Positions 23,695-40,101 of a stretch of DNA of 40,374 bases are shown in pieces. The stretch is from contig JAUMBO010000101.1 of the NCBI GenBank assembly GCA_032119635.1, positions 1 to 40,374 on the forward strand, in the 5' to 3' direction. The position numbers were made by a program, and so were the translations under genes. The notes below the pieces were generated by a model. That model did not search any database, was not told the origin of the DNA, and was given only the letters and a program-made list of their open reading frames with translations. Source of the stretch: Solirubrobacterales bacterium (GTDB lineage Bacteria; Actinomycetota; Thermoleophilia; Solirubrobacterales; 70-9). How positions within the stretch are numbered: position 1 is the stretch's first letter; each line of letters opens with the position of its first letter.

Positions 23695-24888
23695 ATGCGG
23701 ATCCTCATCCTCGGTGGAGACGGCTATCTCGGTTGGCCCACGGCCATGCGCTTCTCGCAGGCCGGTCACGAGGTGACCGTGGTCGACAACTTCTCTCGCC
23801 GGCGGTGGCACCTCGCCCAGTCGACCGACTCGCTGACTCCTATTCATCCCCTCGAGGACCGGATCGAGGCCTGGGAAGAGGTCTCCGGCAAGCGGATCGA
23901 GGCCCGGATCGGCTCGATCGAGGATGCGGAGTTCCTCGACGAGGTCGTGGCCGAGGCGCTGCCCGAGACGATCATCCACTACGGCGAGCAGCCTTCGGCG
24001 CCCTACTCGATGAAGTCCCGCCAGGCTGCGGTCGAGACCCAGCAGACCAACGTGATCGGAACCCTCAACCTGCTCTTCTCGATGCAGTCGTACGTTCCGG
24101 ACGCCCACCTGATCAAGCTCGGGACGATGGGGGAGTACGGAACCCCGAACATCGACATCGAAGAGGGCTACATCGAGATTGAGCACAACGGCAGGAAGGA
24201 CACGCTGCCCTTCCCCAAGCTGCCCGGCTCGCTCTATCACTGCTCGAAGGTCCACGACTCGACCAACATCCACTTCGCGACCCGCATCTGGGGCCTGAGA
24301 GCCACCGACCTCAACCAGGGGGTCGTCTACGGGATCGAAACCGACGAGACGGTGCTCGACCCCCGTCTCGCCACCCGCTTCGATTACGACGAGACCTTCG
24401 GCACCGTGCTGAACCGGTTCTGCGTCCAGGCCGTGGTCGGTCACCCGCTGACCGTCTACGGCGGCGGCGGACAGACCCGGGGGTACCTGAACATCCGCGA
24501 CACGCTGCGGTGCGTCGAGCTGGCGACGATGAACCCGGCCGATCGGGGCGAGTTCCGGGTCTTCAACCAGTTCACCGAGCAGTTCTCGGTCACCGAGATC
24601 GCCGACCTTGTCGCCGAGGCCGCCGGTCGGGTCGGAATCGACGTGACGATCGAGACCTTCCCCAATCCCCGTGTCGAGCTCGAGCAGCACTACTACAACG
24701 CCTCGAACCAGAAGCTGCTCGACCTCGGGCTCGAGCCCCATTTCCTGGGTGAAGAGCTGGTCCACTCGATGCTGAAAGAGATCGACCGGCACCGCGATCG
24801 GGTGATCTACCGTGCGATCACGCCGAAGACCAAGTGGAACCCCGGGGAGCTCGAGGGCGGAGCCCTCTCTGCTGCCAGGGAAACCTGA
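23695..24888 (+). CDS. sqdB: UDP-sulfoquinovose synthase (SQD1/SqdB/Agl3 family SDR), 397 aa
   Basis: Long colinear identity blocks with plant SQD1 as I recall it: GGDGY.GW, HYGEQPSAPYSM, NVIGTLN.LF, KLGTMGEYGTPNIDIEEGYI, YH.SKVHD (catalytic Y-x3-K), LRATDLNQGVVYG, NRFCVQA.VGHPLTVYG.GGQTRGYL.IRDT, EFRVFNQFTEQFSV and NPRVE.E.HYYNA. Confidence 0.9.
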   Translation: MRILILGGDGYLGWPTAMRFSQAGHEVTVVDNFSRRRWHLAQSTDSLTPIHPLEDRIEAWEEVSGKRIEARIGSIEDAEFLDEVVAEALPETIIHYGEQPSAPYSMKSRQAAVETQQTNVIGTLNLLFSMQSYVPDAHLIKLGTMGEYGTPNIDIEEGYIEIEHNGRKDTLPFPKLPGSLYHCSKVHDSTNIHFATRIWGLRATDLNQGVVYGIETDETVLDPRLATRFDYDETFGTVLNRFCVQAVVGHPLTVYGGGGQTRGYLNIRDTLRCVELATMNPADRGEFRVFNQFTEQFSVTEIADLVAEAAGRVGIDVTIETFPNPRVELEQHYYNASNQKLLDLGLEPHFLGEELVHSMLKEIDRHRDRVIYRAITPKTKWNPGELEGGALSAARET

Positions 24889-24913
24889 CCTCGTTGCTAG
24901 GATTAGCGGTCCT

Positions 24914-26593
24914 GTGAGAGGCGCCGACGCACTGATGGAAGCCCTCGTTCATGAGGGCGTCGAACACATTTTCGGGATTCCCGGTGGGGCCAACCTGCCC
25001 ACCTACGACGCGCTGGTCGACGCCGACCTGAGGCACATCCAGGCCCGCCACGAGCAGGCCGCCGGTCACGCTGCCGAGGGGTACGCCCACGCCTCCGGTC
25101 GGACTGGAGTCGCCTTCGGGACCTCGGGCCCCGGCGCGACGAACCTCGTCACGGCGATCGCCGACGCGATGATGGATTCGATCCCGACCGTTTTCATCAC
25201 CGGCCAGGTCCGGTCCGACCTGATCGGGACGGACGGCTTTCAGGAAGCCGACATCGTCGGCATCACCCTGCCGATCGTCAAGCACTCGGCCCTCGTTACG
25301 GAGGCATCGCAGATTCCCGAGTACGTCCACCACGCCTTCCGGATCGCATCGACCGGTCGTCCCGGGCCGGTCCTGGTCGACATCCCCTCCGACCTGATCA
25401 GGGAGGAGATCTCGTACACCCCGCCGACCGAGCCGGTCGAGCTCCCGGGCTATCGGCCGATCGTCGAGGGCAACGCCAAGCAGGTCCGTCTCGCGGCAAA
25501 GGCGCTGGCCAACGCCAGGCGGCCGGTCATCTACACCGGTGGTGGCGTGATCCATGCCGAGGCGTCGGCGGAGCTCAGGGAGTTCTGCATGGCTGACGAC
25601 TTCCCGGTCACCTCGACCCTGATGGGCCTCGGGTCATTCCCGTCCGACTCGGACCAGTGGCTCGGGATGCTCGGCATGCATGGGACCCGGGCGGCGAACT
25701 ACGCGATGGACGAGGCTGACCTGATCGTCGCGATCGGGGCTCGGTTCGACGACCGGATCACCGGCAAGCTCTCGGAGTTCGCGCCCAACGCCAAGATCAT
25801 CCACATCGACATCGACCCGGCCGAGATCTCGAAGAACGTTCCGGCTCACATCCCGATCGTCGGTGACGCGAAGCTGATCCTGCCGAAGCTGACCGGCGAG
25901 TACCGCGCCCTCCAGACCGACTCGGAACGACTCGAGGGCTGGTGGAACCGGATCAGGGGGTGGCGGGAGGAGTACCCGCTCACCTACGAGCCGGGCCAGG
26001 ACGGGGAGATCAAGCCCCAGTTCATGATCGAGATGCTGCACAAGGTCACCGGGGGCGACGCCTTCGTCACCTCGGACGTCGGCCAGCACCAGATGTGGGT
26101 CGCCCAGTACTACGGCTTCAACGAGCCCCGCCGCTGGATCAACTCCGGCGGCCTCGGGACGATGGGCTTCGGTCTGCCTTCGGCGATCGGCGCCAAGGTT
26201 GCCTGCCCGGGAGAGGAGGTCGTCTGCGTCGCCGGTGACGGAAGCCTGATCATGAACGTCCAGGAGCTTGCCACGGCCGTTACCGAGGACATTCCGGTCA
26301 AGGTCTTCCTGATGAACAACGGCTTCATGGGCATGGTCCGGCAGTGGCAGGAACTCTTCTGGGACGGCCGGTACAGCGGCGTCGACAACGGGACCAGCCC
26401 CGACTGGGCGAAGCTTGCCGAGGCTTTCGGCGCGAAAGGCCTGAGGTGCGACGACGAGGCCGACCTCGAGGAGATGATGAGGGCGACGCTCGAACACGAC
26501 GGGACCGCGCTGCTCGACGTCCGGGTCAGCCCACGCGAGAACTGCTACCCGATGATTCCGGCCGGAAATGCGGCCAGGGACATGGTCGGCTGA
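24914..26593 (+). CDS. ilvB: Acetolactate synthase (acetohydroxyacid synthase) large subunit (about 559 aa)
   Basis: GADALMEALVHEGVEHIFGIPGGANLPTYDAL and the ThDP motif GLGTMGFGLPSAIGAK...GDGSLIMNVQELAT...NNGFMGMVRQWQ. It is followed by ilvN. I chose the GTG at 24914 because the tracked ORF start at 24812 lies inside sqdB. Confidence 0.9.
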   Translation: MRGADALMEALVHEGVEHIFGIPGGANLPTYDALVDADLRHIQARHEQAAGHAAEGYAHASGRTGVAFGTSGPGATNLVTAIADAMMDSIPTVFITGQVRSDLIGTDGFQEADIVGITLPIVKHSALVTEASQIPEYVHHAFRIASTGRPGPVLVDIPSDLIREEISYTPPTEPVELPGYRPIVEGNAKQVRLAAKALANARRPVIYTGGGVIHAEASAELREFCMADDFPVTSTLMGLGSFPSDSDQWLGMLGMHGTRAANYAMDEADLIVAIGARFDDRITGKLSEFAPNAKIIHIDIDPAEISKNVPAHIPIVGDAKLILPKLTGEYRALQTDSERLEGWWNRIRGWREEYPLTYEPGQDGEIKPQFMIEMLHKVTGGDAFVTSDVGQHQMWVAQYYGFNEPRRWINSGGLGTMGFGLPSAIGAKVACPGEEVVCVAGDGSLIMNVQELATAVTEDIPVKVFLMNNGFMGMVRQWQELFWDGRYSGVDNGTSPDWAKLAEAFGAKGLRCDDEADLEEMMRATLEHDGTALLDVRVSPRENCYPMIPAGNAARDMVG

Positions 26594-36738: not shown

Positions 36739-38319
36739 GTGAAGGTCCTGGTCAAGGAGCAGATAGCGGAGTCGGGCATCGACCTGCTGCGCGAGCAGTT
36801 CGAGGTCGAGCTCGGGTTCGACATGTCGGACGAGGAGCTTGCCGAGCGGATCGGGGAATTCGACGCGATCCTGATCCGGTCGGCGACTACGATGACCCCC
36901 GAGCTGATCGCGGCGGCCGACAGGCTCAAGGTGATCGGACGTGCCGGTACGGGAGTCGACAACGTCGACATCCCGGCCGCCACCGAGCGCGGTGTGATCG
37001 TCGCCAACGCCCCCGAGTCGAACTCGGTGGCCGCGGCCGAGCACACGCTTGCCCTCGCGCTGGCCCTGTTCAGGAACGTCCCGCAGGCCCACTCGTCGCT
37101 GGTCGGCGGCGAATGGAACCGCTCGGCCTACAAGGGGGCGGAGCTCTATGGGAAGACGCTCGGGGTGATCGGTTTCGGCCGGATCGGCCAGCTCGTAGCC
37201 AGGCGGGCGCTGGCCTTCGAGATGGACGTCCTCGCCTTCGACAAGTTCGTCTCGCCGGAGCGCTTCGAAGAGCTCGGCGTCGTTGGTGTCGACGACGTCG
37301 ACCGGCTCTATGAAGCCGCCGACCTGATCACCATCCACCTGCCGAAGACTCCAGAGACCGTGGGCTGGATCGGTGCGGAGTCGATCTCGAAGATGAAGAC
37401 CGGGGTCAGGATCGTCAACTGCGCCAGGGGCGAGCTGGTCGACCTCGACGCGGTCCTCGAGGGGCTCGAGTCCGGCCGGCTCGGGGGTATCGCGCTGGAC
37501 GTCTTTCCGGAGGAGCCATTCACCGGGCATCCCTTGTTCGGGCGCGGTGACGTCGTCGTGACGCCCCACCTCGGCGCCTCTACCGCAGAGGCTCAGGATC
37601 GGGCCGGAACGGATACCGCCGAGCAGGTCACGGCGGCATTGACCGGTGGAGTGGTGACGAACGCGGTGAACATCCCGGCGGTCGATCCCGCGACGATGAA
37701 GGCGCTGGCACCCTACGTACCCGTCTGCGAGATGCTCGGGAAGGTCGCGGCCGGACTGATCGACGGTCCGCTCGGCTCGGTCGAGGTCGAGTTTCAGGGC
37801 GGTGTCGCCTCGAACGACACGAGGCTGCTCGGTGTGGCGGTCCTCGCCGGGATACTGTCCGGCCACACGGAGCAGCAGGTGAACCTGGTCAACGCCTCAC
37901 AGCTGGCCGAGGCCCGGGGAATCGAGATCGCGGGAACCAGCGCCCCCGAATCGGGCGACTTCACCGACCTGATCACGGTCACGGTCGGAGAGGGTGGGGG
38001 ACAGGTCTCGGTAGGTGGAACGGTCGCCGGGCCGAATCATGCGCCTCACCTGGCCTCGGTCTGGGAGGAGGAGTTCTTCATCCCGTTCGAGCCGCATATG
38101 GCGATCTTCCGATACTCCGACAGGCCCGGGATGATCGGCGCCGTCGGTCAGGTGATCGGAGATGCCGGCATCAACATCGGCTCAGCCGCCGTCGGCGCCG
38201 AATCCGATGGCGAGCAGGCGGTAATGGTGCTGACCATGGACCGTCCGCTGACCGAGTCGGCGATGGAGCAGATCCTCTCGCTCGAAGGCTTTGCCGAGGG
38301 CTCGGCCCTCGACCTCTGA
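36739..38319 (+). CDS. serA: D-3-phosphoglycerate dehydrogenase, long form with ASB and ACT domains (526 aa)
   Basis: GKTLGVIGFGRIGQLVARR (NAD fold), NCARGELVD, TPHLGAST and a C-terminal ACT region (MAIFRYSDRPGMIG). GTG start with a G-rich Shine-Dalgarno sequence. Confidence 0.92.
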   Translation: MKVLVKEQIAESGIDLLREQFEVELGFDMSDEELAERIGEFDAILIRSATTMTPELIAAADRLKVIGRAGTGVDNVDIPAATERGVIVANAPESNSVAAAEHTLALALALFRNVPQAHSSLVGGEWNRSAYKGAELYGKTLGVIGFGRIGQLVARRALAFEMDVLAFDKFVSPERFEELGVVGVDDVDRLYEAADLITIHLPKTPETVGWIGAESISKMKTGVRIVNCARGELVDLDAVLEGLESGRLGGIALDVFPEEPFTGHPLFGRGDVVVTPHLGASTAEAQDRAGTDTAEQVTAALTGGVVTNAVNIPAVDPATMKALAPYVPVCEMLGKVAAGLIDGPLGSVEVEFQGGVASNDTRLLGVAVLAGILSGHTEQQVNLVNASQLAEARGIEIAGTSAPESGDFTDLITVTVGEGGGQVSVGGTVAGPNHAPHLASVWEEEFFIPFEPHMAIFRYSDRPGMIGAVGQVIGDAGINIGSAAVGAESDGEQAVMVLTMDRPLTESAMEQILSLEGFAEGSALDL

Positions 38320-38323
38320 TTCA

Positions 38324-38357
38324 GCCGCCACTCGTTCGGCTAGCTGGCGGTGGCGGT
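38324..38357 (+). terminator. Hairpin just after the serA stop (gCCGCCAC ... GTGGCGGt); no U-tract
   Basis: 7-bp stem (38325-38331 pairs with 38350-38356) plus one G-U pair; 18-nt loop. A TGGCGG TGGCGG direct repeat offers an alternative register. Confidence 0.25.
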
Positions 38358-38361
38358 GCGC

Positions 38362-38367
38362 TACGCT
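38362..38367 (+). promoter_or_regulatory. Putative -10 hexamer TACGCT upstream of the leuA leader ORF
   Basis: TACGCT lies 8 nt before ATG 38376 and 5 nt before the in-frame GTG 38373. No Shine-Dalgarno sequence is present, so the leader ORF may itself be leaderless. Confidence 0.3.
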
Positions 38368-38375
38368 CCGTGGTG

Positions 38376-38447
38376 ATGAATCCCGTTTCGGCAAACCACG
38401 ACAGGGCCGGACTTCTCCTTCTGCTGCTCCCCCTCCGGGGGGAATGA
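38376..38447 (+). CDS. Leucine-rich leader peptide upstream of leuA (23 aa: MNPVSANHDRAGLLLLLLPLRGE)
   Basis: Hand translation of atg aat ccc gtt tcg gca aac cac gac agg gcc gga ctt ctc ctt ctg ctg ctc ccc ctc cgg ggg gaa tga. It has six consecutive Leu codons plus a seventh, and ends 64 nt before the leuA ATG. It is below the ORF-track size cutoff. Confidence 0.65.
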   Translation: MNPVSANHDRAGLLLLLLPLRGE

Positions 38448-38506
38448 TCGCCGGGCGGCGCGTAAGCCGCGAGCAGACAGGGATTCAGAATTCGAAGCAG
38501 AAGGAG
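38415..38506 (+). promoter_or_regulatory. Candidate anti-SD:SD long-range pairing in the leuA leader
   Basis: 38415-38425 CTCCTTCTGCT (inside the Leu-codon run) is the exact reverse complement of 38496-38506 AGCAGAAGGAG, which contains the leuA Shine-Dalgarno AAGGAG (ATG at 38512). Confidence 0.45.
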
Positions 38507-38511
38507 CAAGG

Positions 38512-40101
38512 ATGAACGGCGACCAGGCCGTCAACGACGCTAATCGCGTCCATATTTTCGACACCACATTGCGAGATGGCGAGCAGTCGCCGGGAATCTC
38601 GCTGAACACATCCGAGAAGGTCGAGATCGCGACCCAGCTGGCCAAACTCGGGGTCGACGTGATCGAGGCAGGTTTCCCGATCACCTCGCCGGGTGACTTC
38701 GAGGCGGTCGAGCGAATCGCTCGACAGGTCGAGGGCCCGGTGATCTGTGGCCTCGCTCGCGCCCAGAAGGGAGACATCGACGCCTCCTGGGAGGCGATCA
38801 GGGACTCGGAGCGGCCGAGGATCCACACCTTCATCTCGACCTCGGACATCCACATCCGCCACCAGATGAGGAATACCCGGGAGGACGTGATCAAGGGGGC
38901 GCGGGCGGCCGTGGCGCACGCCAGGTCGCTCTGTGAAGACGTCGAGTTCTCACCGATGGATGCGACTCGGGCTGACGTCGAGTTCACGGCCGAGGTCTGC
39001 GCAATCGCGGTCGAGGAGGGTGCGACCGTCGTCAACATCCCGGACACGGTCGGGTACACGACCCCGGAGGAGTACACGAAGTACTTCGAGGACCTGTACC
39101 GCTTCGCCCCGACGCTGGCAGGGGTCGAACTCTCGGTCCACTGCCACGACGACCTCGGGCTGGCGGTGGCCAACTCCTATGCCGGGTTGCTCGCCGGGGC
39201 GCGTCAGGTCGAGTGCGCTGTCAACGGCATCGGCGAGCGGGCCGGAAACTGCTCGCTGGAGGAGATCGCGATGCTGCTCAAGGTCCGGGGCGATGTCCAC
39301 GGCCTCCACACCGGTATCGAGACCCGGGAGCTGGCGAGGACGAGCCGCCTGGTCTCGCGCTTGACCGGCTACGCCGTGCCGCCGAACAAGGCCGTGGTCG
39401 GCCGTAACGCCTTCGCCCATGAATCGGGCATCCACCAGGACGGGGTGCTGAAGGAGCGCTCGACCTTCGAGATCATGGATGCGACCGAAGTCGGGTTCGA
39501 CTCGAACCAGATCGTGCTCGGCAAGCACTCCGGGAGACATGCACTCCGGGATGCCCTCGAGCAGCTCGGCTTCGTGGTCGAGGGCGAGGCGCTGAACCGT
39601 GCCTTTGCCCGGTTCAAGGAGGTGGCCGACCGCAAGAAGCAGGTCACGGCCCTCGATCTGGAGGCGCTGGTCTCCGACGAGATGCGCCGCGAGGGAGACT
39701 CCCATGAGCTCTCCTCATTCGAGGTGACCTCGGGTTCCGACCGTGACGCGGCCGCCACGGTGACGATCGCGCTGCCGGACGGAAAGACGAGCACCGCGAC
39801 CGCCGGTGGCGACGGGCCGGTCGACGCGATCTTCCAGGCGGTCCGCGATGCAACCGGGATCGAGTCCGAACTGCGGGAGTACAGGGTCGCCGCCGTCACC
39901 GGCGGGGAGGATGCCCTCGGCCAGGTCACGGTCGTCCTTCGCCAGCAGGGCGTGACCGCCTCCGGGCAGGGGGTGTCGACCGACATCCTCGAGGCATCGG
40001 CTCAGGCTTACGTCCGGGCGCTCGCCAACCTGGTGGCCGAGGTCGAGGCGAGGGACCGTGCCGGGACCGAAGCCGAAGGCAGCGCCGCCAAAGGTCCCTG
40101 A
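38512..40101 (+). CDS. leuA: 2-isopropylmalate synthase (529 aa)
   Basis: IFDTTLRDGEQSPG, HCHDDLGLAVANS, NGIGERAGNC, FAHESGIHQDG and a C-terminal LeuA dimerisation/regulatory domain. Strong AAGGAG Shine-Dalgarno 5 nt upstream. Confidence 0.94.
   Translation: MNGDQAVNDANRVHIFDTTLRDGEQSPGISLNTSEKVEIATQLAKLGVDVIEAGFPITSPGDFEAVERIARQVEGPVICGLARAQKGDIDASWEAIRDSERPRIHTFISTSDIHIRHQMRNTREDVIKGARAAVAHARSLCEDVEFSPMDATRADVEFTAEVCAIAVEEGATVVNIPDTVGYTTPEEYTKYFEDLYRFAPTLAGVELSVHCHDDLGLAVANSYAGLLAGARQVECAVNGIGERAGNCSLEEIAMLLKVRGDVHGLHTGIETRELARTSRLVSRLTGYAVPPNKAVVGRNAFAHESGIHQDGVLKERSTFEIMDATEVGFDSNQIVLGKHSGRHALRDALEQLGFVVEGEALNRAFARFKEVADRKKQVTALDLEALVSDEMRREGDSHELSSFEVTSGSDRDAAATVTIALPDGKTSTATAGGDGPVDAIFQAVRDATGIESELREYRVAAVTGGEDALGQVTVVLRQQGVTASGQGVSTDILEASAQAYVRALANLVAEVEARDRAGTEAEGSAAKGP

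Follow-up and report, generated by a model that had tools for sequence, protein, structure and literature searches.

A putative leucine-responsive leader upstream of leuA, with leucine codons complementary to the leuA Shine-Dalgarno sequence, in the class Thermoleophilia

Introduction

In Actinobacteria, leuA is predicted to be preceded by an RNA leader known as the LEU element (Seliverstov, Putzer, Gelfand and Lyubetsky 2005, BMC Microbiol 5:54; PMC1262725). As described there, the LEU element comprises an upstream open reading frame (uORF) with a run of leucine (Leu) codons, which form a base stem with the Shine-Dalgarno (SD) sequence of leuA; an inner pseudoknot or alternative hairpin lies within this stem, and a terminator is lacking. 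Because of the mutagenesis work of Craster (1999), the authors there express doubt about leader-peptide attenuation and prefer a protein-binding site, and the genome set they describe is without Thermoleophilia. Here we analyze a leader of this type from a Solirubrobacterales bacterium of this class, namely a short open reading frame (sORF) and its surrounding RNA elements directly upstream of a bacterial-type leuA. The locus lies near the end of a 40,374-nt stretch of DNA (assembly GCA_032119635.1, contig JAUMBO010000101.1, positions 1 to 40,374), which was analyzed as a whole and is referred to as the window. We propose that the leader is probably a leucine-responsive translational attenuator of leuA.

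The Thermoleophilia leader and the LEU element have in common the position directly upstream of leuA, the uORF with its Leu run, the base stem between Leu codons and SD, the lack of a classical terminator, and a stop codon in or beside a GC-rich hairpin that follows the Leu run. For both, the mechanism is a proposed one.

Leaderless Leu-run peptides upstream of leuA have been mapped by RNA-seq in two Actinobacteria: LeuL1 of Streptomyces lividans TK24 (MRFGLLLLSCRGEGL), which is without a Rho-independent terminator (PMC8079986), and cg4015 of Corynebacterium glutamicum (PMC4046766). Like these, the present locus is a short peptide gene with a Leu run, placed directly at a promoter before leuA. 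Their start sites were mapped by experiment, whereas ours is deduced from a –10 box, and both the nucleotide sequence and the arrangement of the hairpin after the Leu run differ. The LeuL1-type ending '...LLLL-x-x-R-G-E' resembles the 'LLLLLL-P-L-R-G-E' of the window, with homology not established.

Enterobacterial leuL (RF00512) relies on the principle also proposed here, i.e. that consecutive Leu codons sense charged tRNA-Leu through ribosome stalling. In leuL, a terminator/antiterminator pair yields a transcriptional output, whereas the present leader has no terminator, its Leu codons are themselves the repressing strand, and the proposed output is translation initiation. In resistance genes of the ermC/cat type, translational attenuation works through a ribosome that stalls on a short leader ORF and so opens the hairpin sequestering the SD of the gene downstream; stalling there depends on a drug and the nascent peptide rather than on amino-acid supply, and the stalled codons are not anti-SD. 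Our literature search retrieved nothing specific on experiments with this mechanism in Thermoleophilia, nor on direct tests in mycobacteria.

Results

Leu codons of the leader are complementary to the leuA Shine-Dalgarno sequence

An initial annotation of the window had drawn attention to an unannotated 23-codon ORF with six consecutive Leu codons, to an 11-nt perfect complementarity between this run and a segment including the leuA SD, and to a TACGCT hexamer 8 nt before the sORF ATG. Upon re-checking, all coordinates given there proved correct to the base: the ORF is present, the two 11-nt strands are exact reverse complements, and the hexamer turned out to be part of a conserved extended –10 box. 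The features of the locus, numbered within the window, are as follows.

38357–38367, + strand: extended –10 box TGCGCTACGCT (hexamer TACGCT at 38362–38367), a predicted promoter conserved in relatives
38376–38447, + strand: leader sORF MNPVSANHDRAG-LLLLLL-PLRGE*, 23 codons plus stop (ATG at 38376, TGA at 38445–38447)
38377–38384, + strand: A, the sORF start region UGAAUCCC, which takes in the U and G of the AUG and pairs with 38480–38487
38412–38429, + strand: run of six Leu codons (CTT CTC CTT CTG CTG CTC), the proposed sensor
38415–38425, + strand: B, the anti-SD strand CTCCTTCTGCT inside the Leu run, perfect 11-nt complement of 38496–38506
38427–38442, + strand: hairpin 1 (hp1), formed by a C-run and a G-run directly 3′ of the Leu run, with the stop codon (38445–38447) after it
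38455–38470, + strand: hairpin 2 (hp2), GCGGC-GCGUAA-GCCGC, inside a near-invariant core (about 38443–38475)
38480–38487, + strand: A′, GGGAUUCA, 8 nt upstream of B′, covarying with A
38496–38506, + strand: B′, the strand with the leuA SD AAGGAG (38501–38506)
38512–40101, + strand: leuA, bacterial-type 2-isopropylmalate synthase, the regulated gene (NF002086, 753 bits; TIGR00973, 702 bits; both over cut-off)

The sORF at 38376–38447 translates into the peptide MNPVSANHDRAGLLLLLLPLRGE, and two GTG codons (38370 and 38373) provide alternative in-frame starts. The leuA ATG at 38512 is located 5 nt past AAGGAG and 64 nt past the sORF stop. Throughout the 40 kb, CTCCTTCTGCT and its reverse complement at the SD are the sole two occurrences, against a chance expectation of 0.05. 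The B:B′ duplex has an energy of –23.9 kcal/mol, and the minimum free energy (MFE) fold of 38376–38530 contains the anti-SD:SD helix with ~14 pairs, enclosing hp1 and hp2. As noted initially for an attenuator terminator of the classical type, a consensus scan revealed no hairpin with a U-tract (terminator-like site) between the sORF end (38447) and leuA (38512). Likewise, a cmscan of 38200–38650 against the 4227 Rfam families, including RF00512 Leu_leader, returned no match at E ≤ 10.

The leader is conserved across Thermoleophilia

With LeuA of the window as query, 65 loci were collected, nearly all labelled Solirubrobacterales (class Thermoleophilia), and the leaders of about 59 distinct relatives were aligned. 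The sORF, the pairing with the SD and both hairpins are kept in these relatives, which share the order (5′ to 3′) –10 box, start codon, variable N-terminus, Leu run, hp1, stop codon, hp2 segment, spacer and SD. The N-terminal stretch before the Leu run varies from 8 to 14 codons, the run itself comprises five to six codons in the Solirubrobacterales relatives, and the ribosome-binding sites are AGAAGGAGAAG-like and complementary to it. Nearly all relatives have B:B′ duplex energies of –18 to –26 kcal/mol; the spacer between hp2 and SD varies freely in length and sequence.

A covariance model built from 55 relatives (R1) was then used to search 401 Actinomycetota genomes. R1 matched 14 of the 15 genomes of the order, including exactly one match in the source genome, as well as five more of the class. 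Outside the class, the search returned only two weak matches in about 360 genomes, neither adjoining leuA, and nothing credible. Most of the distant true matches had been reported on the strand opposite leuA; once re-oriented, all of them lie upstream of leuA (loci L070–L085). These wrong-strand calls arise because the element is quasi-palindromic—base stem and hairpins score nearly alike when reverse-complemented—so that strand assignment needs gene context. Direct reading of leuA upstream regions in a phylum-wide sample of 151 genomes identified the architecture in 11/11 Thermoleophilia genomes, four of which had been missed by the R1 filters. In distant families of the class, the stop codon falls inside the hp1 loop (CCCCCGCUAGGGGG) and the peptide ends in ...LLLLPR*. 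Leader length across the class amounts to 14 to 41 codons. By sequence comparison, the element is thus a lineage-specific, LEU-type leader kept across the class Thermoleophilia.

The sORF evolves as a coding unit

Among the aligned relatives, the sORF starts with ATG in 57/59 cases and with GTG in the other two. The distance from start to hp1 takes six distinct values, all of which belong to one class modulo 3 (probability without coding constraint, ~(1/3)^5), and the hp2-to-SD spacer occurs in ten lengths spread over all three frame classes. Across relatives, 28 distinct codon strings encode the Leu run; as their variation is confined to third positions (CTA/CTG/CTT/CTC), both Leu identity and the pyrimidine-rich character are kept. 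CTT accounts for 32% of Leu codons in the leaders, as compared with 7% in the genes of the window; this enrichment can be ascribed to complementarity to AAGGAG and renders the sensor dependent on a rarely used codon. Past the Leu run, the residues (P-L-R/W-G-E/D/N) change with the hp1 loop while C-run and G-run stay fixed, which argues that this part is constrained as RNA rather than as peptide. The kept frame, the third-position variation of the Leu codons and the fixed start near the promoter together mark the sORF as a coding unit.

A constitutive, pyrimidine-rich anti-SD stem might merely happen to read as Leu in one frame. Indeed, any CUYCUY anti-SD reads as Leu in one of its three frames, and the helices are without column-wise covariation within the order. 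However, frame, start and stop are kept over the six length classes and over the whole class, with very different N-termini (14–41 codons). In addition, the Leu runs are longer than the stretch that pairs (CUG CUC, the final two codons in the window, fall mostly outside it), and the element is found only before a leucine-pathway gene, once in the genome. We hence regard such a coincidence as hardly credible.

A ribosome on the Leu run is predicted to release the SD

According to the proposal in the initial annotation, the Leu run sequesters the leuA SD unless a ribosome stalls on the run and sets the SD free. We computed partition functions of the leader with a 28-nt ribosome footprint forced single-stranded. 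In the free RNA, the probability of the SD being unpaired was 0.00 for the window (median of 0.01 in 53 relatives). With a Leu codon (first, middle or last of the run) in the ribosomal A-site, it rose to 0.71 (median, 0.63). With the ribosome at the stop codon, where the Leu run has already left the ribosome and the SD is consequently masked again, it returned to 0.00, as did the median of the 53 relatives. Constrained folds, conservation and covarying helix flanks (see below) thus all support the proposal, with SD accessibility passing from 0.00 to ~0.7 and back. Switching as first proposed is, in these models, predicted to be a general property of the family.

Hairpins, helix flanks and an alternative helix

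RNAalifold, run on the MAFFT alignment, independently recovered the base stem, hp1 and hp2. The two hairpins had been listed initially as 'only small local hairpins'; both exist, but they are conserved and form integral parts of the element. Every Thermoleophilia leader that we examined has hp1, whose loop occurs in 15 versions; the stop codon lies either just past the hairpin or within this loop. hp2 is invariant in sequence within the order. Across the class, it occurs at the same position as seven distinct, perfectly paired stems: GCGGC/GCCGC, GCGCC/GGCGC, GCCGG/CCGGC, GCCCGG/CCGGGC, GCGCCGG/CCGGCGC, GCCCGC/GCGGGC and GUUUGCC/GGCAAAC.

In place of column-wise covariation, helices were assessed by cognate versus non-cognate duplex energies, clade-level permutation and class-level comparison. 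The flanks of B:B′ covary: two relatives (L003 and L005) have CUA:UAG, most have CUU:AAG, and the window has CUGCU:AGCAG; in clade f, CUU faces GGG through wobble pairs.

Another helix, A:A′, had been missed initially. It joins the sORF start (38377–38384) to a complementary segment ahead of the SD (38480–38487), and relatives keep this pairing with different sequences. For instance, the helix reads AAUGGCCUUU:AAAGGCCAUU and takes in the AUG in clade f, extends over 12 bp in L003, and pairs CUCGG...AUGAAUC with GAUUC...CGAG in L012. Cognate pairing was much better than cross-clade pairing (clade-level permutation, p = 5e-5), with good support in clades a, e, f and g. A:A′ crosses B:B′. As A′ abuts the SD strand in some clades, where both helices cannot fully form, we read the two as alternatives. 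The MFE structure holds A:A′ only when a ribosome masks the Leu run, on whichever Leu codon.

A third helix was considered as well, namely GCCCGGC (before the Leu run) with GCCGGGC (after the stop) in clades b–e and GCGCU:AGCGC in clade f. The window's own clade lacks this helix, its sequences allowing no more than CCGG:CCGG, and we therefore do not claim it.

The core around hp2 (38443–38475, UGAUCGCCGGGCGGCGCGnnAGCCGCGAG) is almost invariant in Solirubrobacterales although LeuA is only about 72% identical and the neighbouring spacer has diverged. Together with a riboswitch-like shape, i.e. a compact multi-helix domain whose closing base stem overlaps the SD, this would suit a leader whose base stem is opened or closed through the binding of a factor in trans (a protein, small ligand or tRNA), with leader translation being secondary or irrelevant. 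The mutagenesis of Craster (1999), as cited in PMC1262725, points the same way. A pure aptamer or protein site, however, would have no need of a strictly in-frame sORF, of synonymous-type Leu variation or of an invariant start after the promoter. Moreover, the other Thermoleophilia families keep the hairpins but not the core sequence around hp2, and the region matches no Rfam family. Control by such a factor in place of leader translation appears improbable.

Promoter and transcripts of the leader

In the 59 aligned relatives, the –10 box has the consensus GCGCTAnnCT, with its G/T/A/T positions invariant, and in all of them it is spaced 6–11 nt from the sORF start. It matches TGnGnTAnnnT, which we take to be the actinobacterial extended –10 pattern. 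An sORF start near a conserved promoter box is the layout of the mapped leaderless leader peptides in Streptomyces lividans, and the sequence suggests that ribosomes read the leader ORF from a 5′ end that is leaderless or nearly so.

RNA evidence was drawn from Logan contigs. Contigs from a freshwater metatranscriptome (run X26), 100% identical to the window, cover 38399–38463 and 38434–38528; as these contigs have no 5′-end resolution, 38399 is a contig start and not a mapped 5′ end. The Leu run is thus transcribed, and on the same RNA as the leuA start. These contigs exclude that leuA mRNA arises solely from a promoter located downstream of 38425. The same freshwater metatranscriptome also contains the leader of a close relative. 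In a marine metatranscriptome, a contig of a further relative runs through serA, leader and leuA.

The run X26 leader contigs are short and adapter-flanked. Contig depth in this run, a weak measure, was 20–40 over the leader versus 0–15 in the initial 100 nt of leuA. Possible readings are a structured leader fragment that is stable and persists, or production of more leader than full-length mRNA.

A hairpin inside leuA

Codons 9–17 of leuA (38536–38559) contain a hairpin, GACGC-UAAUC-GCGUC, followed by CAUAUUUUC. The stretch 38536–38550 plus CATATTTTCG was the only terminator-like site in the region according to the consensus scan. Here, His-Ile-Phe is encoded as CAT ATT TTC, of which CAT and ATT are rare codons; at the same Ile, 35/58 relatives use ATT or ATA, and 20/58 have TTT at the Phe. 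In the window's genes, ATC accounts for 90% of Ile and TTC for 92% of Phe codons. These features, and the higher contig depth over the leader than over the leuA body in the one metatranscriptome, would fit a mainly transcriptional output, in which untranslated leuA mRNA ends prematurely via Rho or at the hairpin and U-rich tract (38536–38559), SD masking being only the trigger. A preprint on mycobacteria describes premature termination as shaped by Rho and by translated uORFs (bioRxiv 10.1101/2022.06.01.494293). On the other hand, the stem is just 5 bp long (about –7 kcal/mol) and results from the conserved residues D-A-N-R-V. The U-tract is not continuous and is missing from clade f (ATC TTC); contig depth measures expression poorly, and the contigs show no 3′ ends at the site. 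A predominantly transcriptional output is hence conceivable, if somewhat doubtful, and would extend rather than exclude translational attenuation. The hairpin and its rare codons could act as a translation-sensitive intragenic terminator or RNase site, and might in this way couple leuA translation to transcript completion.

Neighbouring genes

Upstream of the leader, serA (TIGR01327) ends at 38319. Between the serA stop and the leader promoter, positions 38324–38356 form an inverted repeat (CCGCCAC...GTGGCGG, 18-nt loop), which may be the serA terminator, without a U-tract. No companion leader precedes ilvB within the window: ilvB (GTG at 24914) appears leaderless, with a TAGGAT box ~10 nt upstream and no space for a leader peptide (region 24880–24916). 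The branched-chain pathway in the source genome seems to carry a leader only at leuA.

Discussion

Model for leucine-dependent control of leuA

Transcription start, sORF translation, stalling and regulatory output are steps that we infer, and they can be assembled as follows. Transcription would start a few nucleotides past the extended –10 box, and the leader ORF would be read from the (near-)leaderless 5′ end. In the free RNA, the Leu codons at 38415–38425 would pair with 38496–38506, with hp1 and hp2 stacked within, and leuA initiation would be blocked. To decode the Leu run, each leader ribosome would have to melt the base stem. If Leu-tRNA is plentiful, the ribosome would pass quickly to the stop codon after hp1, leaving the Leu run behind, and the stem would re-form. 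When Leu-tRNA is scarce—mainly the tRNA reading CUU/CUC—the ribosome would dwell on the run and cover the anti-SD strand, allowing leuA to initiate. In this stalled state, the freed segment 38377–38384 would pair with 38480–38487 just upstream of the SD, and A:A′ would presumably stabilize the open form and limit reloading of the leader. hp1 would sit at the ribosome entrance during Leu decoding and may prolong the dwell time; hp2, right after the stop, may prevent terminating ribosomes from sliding on to the leuA site. The presence of a single genomic copy, upstream of leuA, supports an attenuator.

Several observations weigh against this model. The folding z-score of the whole leader is modest (–1.5), such that the case against chance rests on conservation rather than folding energy. 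Column-wise covariation in the MAFFT alignments is nil within the order, since sequences are near-invariant there and the repetitive Leu run shifts register between clades; the clade specificity of B:B′ is weak (permutation, p = 0.03), and clades b, d, h and i give weak support for A:A′. Plain attenuation gives no obvious reason why the core around hp2 should be near-invariant. Many relatives have their start codon 10–11 nt past the –10 box, so that the mRNA may carry a 3–4 nt leader and not be strictly leaderless. Lastly, according to the citation in PMC1262725, Leu-codon mutations in S. coelicolor reportedly left leuA regulation unchanged (Craster 1999).

A more elaborate, reciprocal switch between two start sites can also be imagined. 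In one state, the sORF start would be open and the leuA SD covered by the Leu codons; in the other, the SD would be open and the sORF start covered by A:A′. A trans-acting factor would then dock at the hp2 core, and/or the hairpin and U-rich tract in leuA codons 9–17 would convert the translational decision into transcript truncation. We deem this arrangement unlikely. If it were true, every leader ribosome would re-sample the Leu-tRNA supply throughout the life of the mRNA.

Relation to other leuA leaders

The codon-run/anti-SD architecture, which the initial annotation had singled out as explicit, is clear here, though it had already been explicitly described as the LEU element in 2005. The text and figure legends (PMC1262725) do not mention an A:A′ helix. 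The inner domain of the Thermoleophilia version consists of two separate hairpins, hp1 and hp2, and no conserved pseudoknot was found inside the base stem; in sequence and arrangement, it differs from that of Actinomycetes leaders that we fetched (Streptomyces, Mycobacterium and Micrococcales types). The latter share only the Leu run with the Thermoleophilia element, and either end in ...LLLL-S-C-R-G-E with a GCCGCGGCG-type hairpin, described as a pseudoknot, or are terminator-bearing forms. Because R1 found nothing credible outside the class, homology to the Actinomycetes elements is not demonstrable: the element would work like the LEU element without being a demonstrable homologue. The Leu-codon/SD principle was already known (PMC1262725); the Thermoleophilia version, with an inner domain unlike that of the fetched leaders, is new.

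The regulated gene differs as well. Here it is a TIGR00973 leuA, whereas sampled model Actinomycetes with yeast-type LeuA (TIGR00970) showed no TIGR00973. Of the 151 sampled Actinomycetota genomes, 123 have TIGR00973 and 15 have TIGR00970. Several non-Thermoleophilia families with TIGR00973 leuA carry LEU-like leaders (...LLLACRG, ALVLSCR, or LVLLLVL* followed by UGAUGCCGCGGCG; L104–L138); the kind of leader thus does not depend on the kind of LeuA enzyme. Other Actinomycetota leuA genes have Leu leaders with clear terminators (L121, L127 and L130), and many are without a recognizable leader.

Implications

The Thermoleophilia leader adds an unannotated sORF and an RNA motif without an Rfam family to the annotation of a poorly studied class. 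With its long perfect stem, lack of a terminator and alternative helix, it offers a clean model for translational attenuation that senses an amino acid. Since 2005, leader-peptide attenuation and a protein-binding pseudoknot have both stood as possible modes of action of the LEU element. The Thermoleophilia version keeps both features that count for the attenuation model, the in-frame sORF with its Leu run and the complementarity to the SD. That the same two features accompany an inner domain unlike that of the fetched Actinomycetes leaders and a bacterial-type leuA argues that selection maintains the codon-run/anti-SD logic itself.

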